DNA of 63,569 nt, filler included, from Globobulimina sp. (taxonomy: Eukaryota): assembly GCA_003354225.1 (NCBI GenBank). It is 55 parts of 55 records of this genome, joined end to end, with 100 filler letters (N's around TTAATTAATTAA, not from the genome) between each part and the next. Parts side by side here need not be neighbours in the genome. Positions count along the whole stretch, not along the records: positions 18,537 to 19,594 come from PIVH01024615.1; 54 more parts are not named here. The stretch is one strand, 5' to 3'. The notes beneath the pieces were generated by a model. That model saw only the letters and a program-made list of their open reading frames with translations. It was not told the DNA's origin and did not search any database. Position numbers and translations under genes: made by a program. This document shows positions 7,052-59,989 of the stretch, piece after piece. Numbering within the stretch: the stretch's first letter is position 1; each line of letters opens with the position of its first letter.

Positions 7052-7389
7052 TGGCCAAGCCTCAATATATAACTTCGCTTGAAAAGGAAGTTGACGATAT
7101 AAAAACCTCTTTAGCCCTCAACGAAAAATCCCACGACAAACTCTTCGATAAGCTTAACGCAATTCATGTATGTCTTGCGGGTACAGATTACGACCAAGAC
7201 GATGGCAATGGGAAAGGGGGTGGGGTGGTGCGGCGTTTAGGCCGTGTCGAAAAAAAAGTTACCTCTCTCCAAGTTTGGCGTACTAAAACGATCACTAAGA
7301 CGAATTTGGTTTGGCTTGTGGTGGGAGGCGCATTGACGGCTGTATGGTCAGTGATAATTGCAAATTGGTCTAACATATTCAAAGGATGA
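7051..7389 (+). CDS. Phage-type coiled-coil protein with C-terminal TM helix (holin/XhlA-like)
   Basis: C-terminal LVWLVVGGALTAVWSVIIA; ATGA overlap with amidase. Confidence 0.55.
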   Translation: MAKPQYITSLEKEVDDIKTSLALNEKSHDKLFDKLNAIHVCLAGTDYDQDDGNGKGGGVVRRLGRVEKKVTSLQVWRTKTITKTNLVWLVVGGALTAVWSVIIANWSNIFKG

Positions 7390-8009
7390 AAATTATAATC
7401 GACAACGGACATGGTGACGACACCAAAGGAAAGCGCTCACCAAATTGGCACAATGGTATTCAGCTTTTCGAGTGGGAGTTTAACCGGGATATAGCTGTCG
7501 AATTATATGACCTATTGCGGGCCGAAGGAATTGCGACCACATTGCTTGTTCACGAAAACAACGACATACCAATCAAGGAGCGTGTCAGGCGGGCCAATGA
7601 GATTCACAAGGCCGAAGATTCAGTTCTTGTGTCGATCCATGGGAATGCTGCACCAAAGTTGAGCGCCGGACCGCACGGGATCGAAACTTTCTACTATAGT
7701 CTGACCGGGAAGGTCTTGGCTTTGAAGCTGCAAAAAGAGCTTATTGCGGCGCTTGGATGGAAGGACCGGAGAGTAAGAAAGGCGTACCGGAAAGTCAAAA
7801 CGAACGTGGGCACAGATCAGGAAAAATTCATCACTACGTATAAAATTGCTATCCTGAAATACACTGATATGCCAGCGGTTTTGACAGAGAGCGGTTTTTA
7901 TACTAATTTTGATCAGTGCCAAGAAATGATGAAAGAAGAAATCAGGAATAAAATTGCACAGGCACACGCCGACGGAATTGTAAAATACTTGTCTAACTTA
8001 AATTCTTAA
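7386..8009 (+). CDS. N-acetylmuramoyl-L-alanine amidase (Amidase_3), probable endolysin
   Basis: IIIDNGHG, EWEFNRDIA, ERVRRAN, VSIHGNA, MPAVLTESGF zinc-amidase motifs; upstream AAGGA Shine-Dalgarno. Confidence 0.93.
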   Translation: MKIIIDNGHGDDTKGKRSPNWHNGIQLFEWEFNRDIAVELYDLLRAEGIATTLLVHENNDIPIKERVRRANEIHKAEDSVLVSIHGNAAPKLSAGPHGIETFYYSLTGKVLALKLQKELIAALGWKDRRVRKAYRKVKTNVGTDQEKFITTYKIAILKYTDMPAVLTESGFYTNFDQCQEMMKEEIRNKIAQAHADGIVKYLSNLNS

Positions 8010-18536: not shown

Positions 18537-19594
18537 AATGAGTCAGTGTCACGAACTAAATGGAAACGACATTTTGGATATTTGATTTGGCAAAGGAAAC
18601 ATACTGTTATGTTAACTATATTTGATGAATGGAATTGTAAATCAGATATTTGGAATTAACATTTTTAAGTACAATGTATGAAAAAGATCAGGTTCATACA
18701 AAGGATGATGTTATTAGTACATCTTAACTTAATGGCAATCAGAGAGCAAACCAGACCAACACGACGAACACAACAGATACAACTGACACCGCAAACACAG
18801 ACACCACAGACACCACAGAGACATATCGTAGATGTTGCATCGCAATTACCACATTCTATGATTAGTTATATGTATTTTAATCGTATCAAAATTATTAGCA
18901 AACGTTGGATGCAGTACCAGACACAAGCGCTACACAAAAGTAATGAGCTTAAGAGCGCACATTATTATAGTTTTGTATTGTTATTTTTTGGAATATATTT
19001 ATTTTGCAAGAAACACTCTAATGTTGGAATAGCCGATATTATATGTAAATATATTGGGTCCACTCTATATCCCGAAGAGTTTATGGATATATTCACGGAT
19101 AAATTAATTTTTGGGATTACACACCCGCATATTCGCACAAATTTTAGATTTAGACATATTGCATTGGTCAAATTTGAAAGGCAAGACGACGCAGTACAGT
19201 GGCAATTTAATATGGGTAATGAATTTAGGAATATGGTGTATAATGACCGCATAATAAGTACTAAAACAGATGAAGATGAACATGAAATGGTAAGGGAATC
19301 GTGGGAATCGTGCGACTCGTGGCAATTATGGGAATCTAGGCGAGATTATATTGTTAAATTAAAGCCAAAAGATACCAAAATGCGAGTTAAAATATTTGAG
19401 GACAAATCTATGCGTCAAGAACGATTATGGCCAGAAATTACAATTTTTATGGAATCACATCAATCAATTCCTATCAATGAGTCAGTGTCACGAACTAAAT
19501 GGAAACGACATTTTGGATATTTGATTTGGCAAAGGAAACATACTGTTATGTTAACTATATTTGATGAATGGAATTGTAAATCAGATATTTGGAA
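18537..19594. repeat. Contig with exact 119-bp terminal direct repeat: 939-bp circular or tandem unit
   Basis: 18537-18655 is identical to 19476-19594. Confidence 0.95.
18678..19594 (+). CDS. Hypothetical protein (up to 306 aa) completed across the repeat junction; stop TAA at 18657-18659
   Basis: Single open frame; continuing through the repeat gives ...CKSDIWN-stop; true start may be a later ATG. Confidence 0.7.
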
Positions 19595-36148: not shown

Positions 36149-36958
36149 ATGGCTTTCTTATACAGTGATCTAACCGAAGTATCCCCATATTTAAAAGCAC
36201 GCAAAAAATTCTATACACCCGACGCGTGGACAAAAATGATAAATGCTCTGAAAACAGTTACTCATCTCTTCCAACATCCATTTAATTTCCCACTCACTTA
36301 CATGACATACAAATATGCCTCGCCAGAGCACAACATTATATATAGGTAATTTATCTTTCTATACTGACGAAGAGCAGGTCTATACATTATTTTCTTTATG
36401 TGGCCCTGTTAGGAGGGTAATTATGGGCATCCATAAATACACTCACTTACCCTGCGGATTCTGCTTTGTTGAGTTTAGTTGTACATCAAATCCATTTTTC
36501 TTATCCTATCCTTGCACCTAAGTCATTATTCAACTATGAATAGATATTATTTCCATCGCGACGCCATGGCAGCAAGAAACTATTTGAATGGCACGAAATT
36601 GGATGATCGTATCGTGCGCGTTGACTTAGATCCCGGTTTTGAGGCCGGACGGCAGTTTGGGAGAGGTACCACTGGCGGACAGGTACGGGATGATCGGAGA
36701 CATGAATATGATGAGGGAAGAGGTGGTCTGCCACCAAGACATAAGCAGAGATTAGAAAAACATGCCATTACATCTGGCACACTGATTGGACCCACTTCGG
36801 GGCCTCTAAATAATCAGAATACGAATAGACATCGCTATGAACGCAATATGACTGCGAATAATACAAATACAGCCAAGAAAGAAGAGGAACATAAAGATAT
36901 GAAACAAATCAATGAGAATAATGGTAGTGATGGTAAGAATGGTAAGGTTGGTGAGGAT
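36149..36958 (+). CDS. NCBP2: Nuclear cap-binding protein subunit 2 (CBP20); introns 36257-36326 and 36473-36543; 3' partial
   Basis: [58 protein letters not shown]. Confidence 0.95.
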
Positions 36959-47471: not shown

Positions 47472-48330
47472 CTGTTCCACCAATATTCTATGGCCGCTAT
47501 GTGGACGATATTTGTGTTTTAATTAAGGATCGTGCAGCATTAGATACCCTCTTATCATCCCTCAATAAAGCTGATTCTGAAAAGCGGATTATTTTTACAC
47601 TCGATTCGAGACAAATGGTTGTTTGCCATTTTTAGACAGTCTCTTGGATCGTAATGACAATAATCTGACTATTCCTGGTCTCAGTGGTCCATTAGCAAGT
47701 TTTTTGAAACGTTGGAACATATCTATTGGTTATCGAAAACAACAGACACTTGGTCATTTACTCTACAAACGATCCCCTGAAACTGAATATTTTGATCAGC
47801 AAAACGTCATATACAAAGTTGATTGTCCTTCTTGTGATAAATGCTACATTGGACAAACAAGGCGGAAAGTTAGAGTCAGATTAAAGAATCACAAAGATGC
47901 GATTAGACTGAATCACAATGATAATGCTATTTCTTCTCATGTAACACATTATGGACATCGAATTGACCCTTTCACTGGAGAGATAATTGCAAAAGATAAC
48001 AGAGTAGACCTATTGTTGGCAAAGGAGAATTTATTGATTGATGCAGCCAATACCATGAACATTACTAAAGGCTGGGCAAACAAAGCGTTGGTCCAGTTAT
48101 TATCCAGTTAAAGGAGCCTAGTTTGATTAGAGTTGTTTTCTTGCATTTTTATCTGCCTTTGTTTCTGTACTCTATAGTAGAAGAGAACAAATTTTTAATT
48201 ATATTTCTGTATTTACAATGTAAGTGATTCTTATCTTTGCTACTTTTGTAATTTATTATGTCTTATTTGTGTTTTTAGTGTACTCTGATGATGGCCCGCG
48301 TTTCTGGGTCGAAATATTAGAACATAAAAG
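47472..48330 (+). mobile_element. Penelope-like retroelement (RT C-terminus + GIY-YIG endonuclease), internally deleted and frameshifted
   Basis: YGRYVDDICV, LPFLD, NVIYKVDCPSCDKCYIGQTRRKVRVRLKNH..H..H; stop 48111; 3' hammerhead. Confidence 0.92.
48272..48330 (+). ncRNA. Minimal type I hammerhead ribozyme
   Basis: CTGATGA (48285) - stem II GGCCC/GGGTC - GAAA-TAT-T; stem I GTGTACT/AGAACAT; downstream of Penelope ORF. Confidence 0.75.
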
Positions 48331-55596: not shown

Positions 55597-56627
55597 ATGG
55601 ATAACGGTGACTGCGTCACCGGATGACTTTAACGACTTACTGAATAATTATGAGTGGGTTAAACATATTTTTGTAAAAAATGAAGCTGAACGGATTCCAA
55701 ATGTATCAAATTTATGTAATATGTTTAAACAATGTGATCATATTACCATTGAAATGGCGAAGACATTGATTAATTTTAATCTAAACAAATTTTGTAGATC
55801 AGTAATTGAGGACACATTAAATATATCAAATAAAAATATAGTGATTGAGTTTAAATGTCCAACGATTAAAAGGGCAGCTTCAATGGAGTTAAAATTTGAG
55901 CAATATTCACAACGATACAATAAATTAAATTTACAAACACATTCCAATGGGAAATCAGTGATTATATTGCCATGTTATAGGGATGATGTTATGTCCTGCA
56001 ATGAGACCGATAAAAGTCACAAAACTGATATCGATTTGAAATTGGACACCGCCGATAATCAATCCGATAAACAAGAAACTTATGAGGAATTATTGCTTGC
56101 CGGATTGACTAGAAAGTACGGCGTGGAATATGAAATCCCATCATCTGTTGTTCAATTATGCCATTTATACTTTGCTTCTTTTGTATTTCCTGCATTGCAA
56201 AGCAAAGTAAAAAGCAAAAGTAAAAATGCAATTTTACGAATATTTGAATTATTTCATAGAGACGATTATCAGGTATGGATGAAGCATTATTGTGGTAAAG
56301 TTGGTGTTGTTGTTGATCATCACATAACAAATGGTGTTAAAGTCAGATTTGAGGGCAAAAAACCGGTCACAATCTGGTATGAACCATCATGTTTTTCTCA
56401 AATTGAAGGTAAATGTATTAAAATGGATATACGATATTTAATTGATGATAAAGTACTGTTTTATCGACAGCCAACAGGAATTAATATGAAATTAAGTCAC
56501 AAAGAATCAGGATTCATTGATAGAGTCGGCACAGTTTGTAAATACGAACAGAATACGCAAACTAAAGAGTTATTATCTGTTTGTTTTGGAGACCAATATG
56601 TTATCCGTAGTTTGCCGAGTCAATGTG
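55597..56627 (+). CDS. Hypothetical multidomain protein (partial)
   Basis: Long ORF; LLLAGLTRK..IPSSVVQLCHLYF helix motif. Confidence 0.55.
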
Positions 56628-58024: not shown

Positions 58025-58941
58025 ATGGCAGAAGAAAAAAAAGATGATCATGATTTATCAGAATGCACAGGGAAAGATTTAGAATCATTTGATTCCGATT
58101 TTGCATCAAATCCCAAAAACGAACTGGCAATGAATATAGTGACACACAGTGAGTTGACAACAGCCGCTTTGTCGCGAGCTGCGCGCTTAACCCACGACCA
58201 TGTTTATTCAGTGTCAATCCCGGAAGAAGGAAAACCAGTTTGCGCACAAAATTCAACTGGCCGTTGTTGGTTATTTGCCGCTTTAAATGTGATGAGGTTA
58301 ATTTTGTCTTTTTTTACGATGATAAATATAAAATTCCTGAAATTATTTCCAAATAGAATACCATTTATGAAAGAACACAAATTGACAGAATTTCAATTCA
58401 GTCAAAGTTACTTATATTTTTGGGACCATTTTGAACGTTGTAATTATTTTTTAGAGCAGATATTAGACACTTTATCAGAGCCATTGGATGGCCGTTTGGT
58501 GCAATATTTATTGTCAAAGCCCATCGAAGATGGCGGCCAATATGATATGATTGTGAATATTGTGGAGAAATATGGGGTCGTTCCACGTCAGATATTCCCG
58601 GAAGTGGAAGCAACGAAAGCGTCGCGGAGATTAAATTGGATCTTAAAGAATAAATTGCGAGAATATGCCATGATATTAAGGTAAAAATATCTGGTCATTG
58701 TGCAAAATATCTGTATCAAACTAGCATGAAATGTAAATATAAAGTTGCAAATAAGCATGTTTTACAGATTCAATTTTATATTTACACGTCATGCCATTTT
58801 GAGTAATATCATTTTTAAGGAAGGAATATGGCCAAAACAAGGGCATCAATGTCAGCAAATTGAGAGAAATCAAGAAAGTGCAATTAAATGAGATATATTC
58901 CGAGGTCAATGACAATCGAATGTATCAATATGACAGTTTTG
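58025..58941 (+). CDS. BLMH: Bleomycin hydrolase (C1B peptidase), partial; introns 58297-58356 and 58681-58819
   Basis: QNSTGRCWLFAALN, FSQSYLYFWD, DGGQYDM..IVEKYGVVP, KLRE. Confidence 0.95.
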
Positions 58942-59041: not shown

Positions 59042-59989
59042 CAATGCTTCGGTGTTGCACATTTTATCAAATAATTCTAATTGATCCGTCATACTGTTTG
59101 TGCTGTAATCTTCATACAACACTTCATCGTAACAACTCAAACTGGCCACGAATATTACGGCAGTCACTTGGTTGAAACAGTTGATCCATTTCTTGCGTTC
59201 AGATTTTTGACCGCCAACATCAATGATGGAAAATGCGCCTTTTCCATTTGCCAGCTCATATTTTTCCTCATTGGCTCCTATATTAAAGTATATGTATTTG
59301 TACATATTTTATTATTTATAACAATGTACAAAGATACCAGTGGTCTTATATCGGACCAATAATATGTCAGCTTCATCCGGTACATAACCGATAGTGTTTA
59401 ACTCGTCCAATTTATCCCAAAAATAGGCAGACGAATCGACAATTTTGGTGATATTTCGCATGTCATACATTCTTTGAATGGCGGGTTCCGCCCATAAACA
59501 TTTTATGGCAGAAACGATATCATCATTTAATCGATATTTAGTGTAATGGAGATTGGATAAAAATGCTTCCGCTTCTTTACCGGATTCAGATAATTCAATT
59601 GAAAACTCGTCCTCTTCGAATGCATCCACTTCATCGATACCTACATTTTGTTTTAATTCAATATATTTGCTTTCGTTTTGATGTAATAGCATCATGCCGT
59701 CCCTGTCACCGTTTCTATATTCTTCCAATACGAGACAGGCAGATTGCATTTGCTCGATGACTTGTTCGTGGATATACGATATAAATACACTCCTTTCTGC
59801 GTGATTAAACCCTCTGCCATAAATCCCTCGCAACTGTTTGAATATGGTTGATTTGCCACTACCGCCACTTCCTAAAAATAATATTTTCTTGACTCCGTTG
59901 GAGCTTCTTTTATCTTTTTCTAATTGTTTTGCTATTGTAGAGTTCTGTATGTCTCCATCAGTCGCTCCACACGTAAAACAATCGCCCAT
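59042..59989 (-). CDS. Heterotrimeric G-protein alpha subunit, 3' partial; intron 59278-59337
   Basis: MG start, GSGGSGKSTIFKQ, DILLVRYKTTG, DVGGQKSERKKW..F..VTAVIF. Confidence 0.95.

Follow-up and report, generated by a model that had tools for sequence, protein, structure and literature searches.

Contig PIVH01024615.1 (C24615) of the Globobulimina sp. assembly GCA_003354225.1 ends with the letters with which it begins and is almost entirely covered by one circular open reading frame, which raises the question of whether it represents a one-gene DNA in its own right, circular or tandemly repeated, or a path that the assembler closed through a gene of the host. The contig belongs to a window of 63,569 nucleotides, filler included, made of 55 length-sorted contigs of 1,057-1,059 nt each with N spacers between them; the source assembly is fragmented, with 70.2 Mb in 48,370 contigs. 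The neighbouring contigs are unrelated to the looped contig and reveal a eukaryote that is rich in AT, uses the standard code and has GT-AG introns measuring about 57-60 nt. Introns of this length with the unusual donors GTTAAT, GTATCT and GTTTAG are found at 58297-58356, about 59280-59340 (minus strand) and about 36470-36530, and one unusual-donor intron reads through in frame without a stop. The contig at 6955-8013 contains a frame (7374-8006) which we take to be N-acetylmuramoyl-L-alanine amidase-like, and which therefore points to bacterial or phage DNA mixed into the assembly; the contig at 47472-48528 shows, at 47581-48108, what is presumably the C-terminal reverse-transcriptase and GIY-YIG part of a Penelope-like element.

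The ends of the looped contig match exactly over 119 nt, as the preliminary description had reported, and leave a repeat unit of 939 nt. None of the other window contigs, which number 55 with this one, has a terminal repeat of at least 10 nt; however, three of 100 whole contigs fetched from the assembly, which were not randomly chosen and so do not give a rate, also show a 119-nt overlap, and the claim that this topology is found in a single contig holds within the window but not in the assembly. The units of these three contigs are 959, 958 and 3,942 nt long, with remainders of 2, 1 and 0 modulo 3. In L071 the end of the long frame resembles an abundant host motif, L077 shows long frames on both strands, and L106 has a frame of 1,057 codons. 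An exact overlap of one fixed length, common to unrelated contigs, is the mark of an assembler loop (DTR) contig; 119 nt is the overlap length of the assembler, as previously supposed, and it marks a closed path, so that a head-to-tail joint exists. PMC8116208 describes such fixed-length overlaps in assemblies of circular templates. The assembly yielded neither another piece of the unit nor a second DNA copy or a paralogue, in a genome search that gives lower bounds only. The features of the contig are collected in Table 1.

Table 1. Features of the looped contig and related contigs (positions along the window).
Feature	Position or contig	Strand	Remarks
First copy of terminal overlap	18537-18655	.	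Arises from the assembler, not from a biological repeat; three other contigs have an overlap of this length
Second copy of terminal overlap	19476-19594	.	End falls exactly on the two-A/three-A site
A-run	18654-18655	+	Two A's in the looped contig, three in runs X1 and X3
Last 20 parent codons within the unit	18656-18716	+	Three-A frame, no stop, host-like codons
Hairpin of 5 bp made by the joint	18707-18723	.	Holds TATTAGTAC; no more stable than shuffles
Head-to-tail joint	18714-18716	+	TTA at both segment ends in the linear parent, once in the loop
13-mer	18718-18730	+	Occurs again 26 nt upstream, within the left flank of the linear parent
Thr-rich segment, (N/D)TT repeats	18743-18864	+	Frame +2; probable exon, its start suggested by the CAG acceptor at 18740-42
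Candidate 34-nt GT..AG intron	18865-18898	+	18% GC; would join frame +2 to the main frame
Main coding segment	18858-19594	+	245 codons from ATG 18858, or exon from 18899; orphan
Hydrophobic stretch of 15 residues, then basic residues	18963-19007	+	Mean hydropathy 1.91 over 15 and 1.26 over 19 residues; possible, marginal membrane anchor
Other self-closing contigs, 119-nt overlap	L071 = C24123; L077 = C24129; L106 = C1669

The unit is present in three public sequencing runs (X1, X2 and X3), which come from one sample and one study and are thus not independent of the assembly, no RNA run being listed among the sources; the Logan contigs of the runs were used, and such contigs drop rare variants. 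Run X1 contains 94% of the words of the unit, and an X1 contig of 2,172 nt aligns to it as 18714-19593 and then 18654-18716, which is exactly one turn. This contig enters the unit at 18714 and leaves it at 18716, with the same TTA at both ends, and extends beyond it by 59 letters to the right and, as obtained by subtraction, by 1,170 to the left (255 are listed). Neither flank fits anywhere on the unit at 85% likeness, and 30 letters of each were inspected. Coverage is limited to 18849-19083 in X2 (share 0.19) and to 18537-18712 in X3 (share 0.11); the X3 record, of 177 nt, has its start on the first contig base, 18537, and stops 4 nt short of where the joint ends, either by coincidence or as an effect of the way records are reported. 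A linear parent, seen in one short-read contig of one run, therefore holds the segment once between unrelated flanks; single copy means here one turn in the linear X1 contig, and the depth figures of the runs were not taken as copy numbers. The head-to-tail joint was not seen in the contigs of the three runs, from which rare variants are dropped, nor was an empty site with the flanks joined at TTA, which alignment to the unit alone could not show. Searches of the assembly with flank patterns found neither flank, a result that does not by itself show their absence.

The left flank and the unit have the 13-mer in common (chance about 6e-5), and because it is repeated in both, the left flank is taken as the native, old neighbour of the unit. 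Flanks added to a native circle at the same three bases would need two chimeric events or a true integration, and integration is unlikely because the left flank carries the 13-mer of the unit. Both the X1 contig and its native left flank agree with extrachromosomal circular DNA (eccDNA) formed from a contiguous stretch of a linear parent; a collapsed homogeneous tandem array does not fit one turn between two unrelated flanks.

The looped contig and the runs also differ in one letter. In X1 the joint goes back 940 nt, and in X3 an A is put in behind 18653; since both runs read one more A, the parent segment is 940 nt long, the X3 evidence being a single low-depth contig that also differs at 18672. 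The two-A form gives the unit of 939 nt and puts the TAA at 18657-59 in frame, whereas the three-A form puts it out of frame; the unit described as a multiple of 3 that ends at this TAA is thus true of the looped contig and not of X1 and X3. Over 18656-18716 the three-A frame has a codon score of 0.374 and 0 stops, against -0.16 and 0.013 with 2 and 3 stops for the other frames, in a stretch that is short and noisy, and it remains open across the 30 right-flank letters inspected; thirty open codons are expected by chance with a probability of about 0.08, which is supportive but not decisive. The one-base deletion lies 60 nt before the joint, within one 119-mer, so that deletion and joint travel together, which suggests a single founding molecule. 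The overlap of the contig ends on this site, as a fork in the graph between the two-A and three-A paths would produce. A 940-nt circle also resembles a tidy one-gene circle: its frame would end at TAA 18725-27 and ATG 18732 would follow after four bases, and a stop within 4 codons has a chance of about 0.29.

The circular frame from ATG 18678 to TAA 18657-59 encodes 306 amino acids. In 2000 base shuffles of the circle, the longest stop-free run had a median of 72 and a maximum of 205 codons; a run of 306 codons is therefore beyond chance and indicates real coding DNA. From 18858 the ORF frame is free of stops, whereas the other two contain 9 and 32, and its codon score of 0.157 is at the low end of the host range (0.11-0.42, obtained from 32 host frames that also served as the training set). 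Between 18732 and 18857, frame +2 scores 0.215 and the ORF frame 0.018. This region contains an AC-rich repeat of eight 9-nt units in which, by hand alignment, eight of the 12 differences fall at third and none at second codon positions of frame +2; the AC-rich stretch has 4 T's in 87 nt, and the other frames stay open over it because of this composition. The frame covering about 98% of the unit in the preliminary description does exist on the circle, but its codons 1-12 come from beyond the joint at 18714-16, and 18732-18857 appears to be coding in frame +2, so that the AC-rich 5' part, previously taken as a possible UTR, appears to be coding as well. No intron had been visible in the unit; nevertheless, five GT-AG pairs could restore the frame, and one of them is the 34-nt candidate, which lies within one of the most AT-rich windows of the unit and is shorter than the inspected host introns (about 57-60 nt). 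If this intron is right, the parent would encode a stalk that is rich in Thr and bears N-x-T sites, together with a marginal hydrophobic stretch and a long tail, and the encoded fragment would belong to an orphan protein, perhaps membrane-anchored. The intron-like frame change and the host-like codon use suggest that the parent is most likely chromosomal and belongs to the eukaryotic host. The single ORF over 98% of the loop is thus a composite of a gene fragment, cut at the head-to-tail joint and closed by the one-base deletion, and a shadow frame.

Searches with the protein found no relative at E 0.001 among 1.84 billion representatives and, at E 1 in a 5.8-billion set covered for lengths of 134-429 only, none among 27 candidates. 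Three stretches in viral contigs and 25 in metagenome contigs were obtained, none of which was confirmed as a relative, and the PDB, plasmid and ESM Atlas searches gave no match. The profile search proposed for the 306-aa protein returned no Pfam family. Its sole match among PHROGs, with a PHROG of unknown function (E 0.033), was taken as chance, and two weak matches in the assembly (E 0.003 and 0.09), which lie on short hydrophobic stretches, were dismissed. AlphaFold without an alignment gave an unusable model (pLDDT 36). Rfam returned two snoRNA matches at E 2-4, far under the gathering scores, and a viroid- or obelisk-like rod was rejected, as the circle folds into a branched structure in which about 60% of bases are paired (without shuffle control). 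A short host protein motif, made of leucines, Gly and Arg, then Ile-Pro-x-Asp and a Cys before aromatic residues, is abundant in the assembly, with at least 11 copies, among them 56072-56191 of the window and contigs L005, L006 and L027-L034. The residues near 18975-19060 were considered as a copy of this motif and rejected, since the 11-copy profile gives -3.8 bits and 454 of 1000 shuffles score as well.

Taken together, we consider with a probability of about 0.8 that the assembler formed this loop by passing through a head-to-tail joint of passive origin, and that the gene in which the joint lies is a single-copy orphan of the host and most likely chromosomal. The linear parent bounds a 940-nt segment with TTA at both ends, and the loop joins the two, minus one A 60 nt before the joint. 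The segment would take in the tail of an intron (or of a different non-coding stretch), an exon rich in Thr, a short intron, and the greater part of a long exon continuing beyond its right end. A single founding molecule, in which the short repeat served for strand switching or end joining, would explain the private one-base deletion, and the loop would have no means to replicate and make no intact product.

The overlap of 3 nt cannot decide the origin of the joint because 7% of random joints reach it. The end rules known for Helitrons, IS200/IS605 elements, integron cassettes and back-splicing were compared by eye with both ends and did not fit. Amplification with phi29 makes same-strand joins with overlaps of 2-21 nt (PMC1855051), direct joins of less than 10 kb being 11 of the 475 multiple displacement amplification (MDA) chimeras given there; the overlap of MDA chimeras peaks at 6 nt (PMC4595205). 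Microhomology is likewise found at the joints of cellular eccDNA (PMC10581685), and small circles are favoured by phi29 (PMC4640604). We tentatively place a chimera from DNA amplification or library making at the head of the origins, followed by cellular eccDNA picked up or enriched in one library, which is possible; a local tandem duplication in a minority of cells or in one allele is doubtful, and in some cells it would yield the same graph as a chimera or eccDNA. All three are passive, and it is jointly that they carry the probability given above. A minority circular molecule is also possible, since a rare variant would be missing from Logan contigs.

The preliminary description had proposed that this DNA exists mainly as a one-gene minicircle, autonomous or amplified, or else as a long homogeneous gene array, and this proposal agrees with an assembly that holds the loop only and with a frame over 98% of it. 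We now regard it as the least likely of the explanations, because X1 shows a single copy between unrelated flanks with neither joint nor second turn, the frame is cut by the joint, and a dominant loop would, judging from graph simplification, have broken the X1 contig; moreover, the frame is near-complete thanks to the loss of one base, which two runs still have, and to a shadow frame across a segment where 4 of 87 nt are T. Long reads with no more than a local two-copy duplication within chromosomal flanks had been named among the findings that would speak against the proposal, and X1 answers this in spirit, by a short-read contig instead of long reads. The TTA at both parent ends and once in the loop, the 5-bp inverted repeat 2 nt inside both ends and the several such loops in the assembly would be expected if a dedicated enzyme had cut out a discrete element or eliminated segment at TTA and circularised it, in the manner of PIF/Harbinger or of ciliate pointers. 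Elements of the PIF/Harbinger or Tourist type show TTA or TAA direct repeats at their ends and terminal inverted repeats of at least 14 nt; the former are present here, but the five inverted pairs found include no terminal inverted repeat, only the 5-bp pair lying near the ends, and no transposase or further, dispersed copies were found in a genome search that gives lower bounds. Sequences eliminated in ciliates are non-coding inserts whose removal restores a gene, whereas this segment is itself coding and, at its right end, interrupts a frame that is open and host-like. With the 13-mer common to left flank and unit, and no empty site in three runs (within the limit of alignment to the unit alone), enzymatic excision appears very unlikely, even in a group for which genome rearrangement in the life cycle is described (PMC10936158, PMC11606643).

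Failure to find the flanks in the assembly, and a protein with no host paralogue and no relative in any search, could also mean that the loop is a defective sub-genomic circle derived from some larger, unknown replicon or virus; the 2,172-nt contig would then represent most or part of this parent, whose proteins would copy the loop. ATG 18858 overlaps TAG 18863-65, as in compact genomes, and the joint creates TATTAGTAC, which we take to be one letter off the babuvirus nonamer. Nevertheless, the frame +2 segment has no ATG after TAA 18725-27 and so needs splicing, and no match was found in viral contigs, plasmids or PHROGs beyond the one at E 0.033. CRESS viruses carry a nonanucleotide in the loop of a stable stem; the stem here is of 5 bp, with -2.1 and -2.5 kcal/mol (z 0.23 and -0.44), and 113 and 66 of 200 shuffles fold as well, and neither Rep, capsid nor other viral protein homology was detected. 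Such an origin is therefore quite unlikely.

If the loops are real molecules, this protist might regularly shed gene-sized circles of its chromosomes, closed at short direct repeats, when its nuclei break down or its genome is reduced during the life cycle, with both breakpoints resolved at this locus (TTA, with the 5-bp inverted repeat inside); we hold this unlikely. Foraminifera rearrange their genomes during the life cycle (PMC10936158, PMC11606643), and the reorganisation in PMC10936158 is described from microscopy; a narrow search of titles and abstract openings in the open-access literature gave no report of circles of this kind in foraminifera. This locus contributes a parent in which both breakpoints can be seen, and loops that were cellular and breakpoint-specific would give a sequence-level handle on foraminiferal genome reorganisation. 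The assembler loop that we favour calls for caution, since a self-closing 1-kb contig with 98% in one ORF can arise when a gene fragment combines with the deletion of one base and a shadow frame, and such contigs of this assembly should not count as minicircles.

Nanovirus and babuvirus segments and the Rep-less CRESS satellites are circles of about 1 kb with one long frame and a nonamer at a hairpin. The loop is like them in size, in its one long frame and in a nonamer-like word at a hairpin, but unlike them it shows no stable stem-loop and no viral relatives, its frame is cut by the joint and a linear parent is present. With the direct MDA chimeras of PMC1855051 and PMC4595205 it has in common a same-strand join with an overlap of a few bases, within 1 kb, seen in one assembly but not in the run contigs, from which rare variants are dropped, although direct joins of less than 10 kb are rare among those given and amplification of the sample is not on record. 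The eccDNA or microDNA of PMC10581685 is likewise unique sub-gene DNA of about 1 kb, joined at a short direct repeat and with no replication gene, whereas the loop is seen as an assembly path and its overlap is just 3 nt. Finally, the DTR contigs of de Bruijn assemblers, as far as PMC8116208 describes them, show the same exact end overlap of one fixed length common to unrelated contigs (119 nt in four of the four loops checked here); these are usually whole circular or concatemeric genomes, and the looped contig differs from them in that its linear parent is seen with both flanks.
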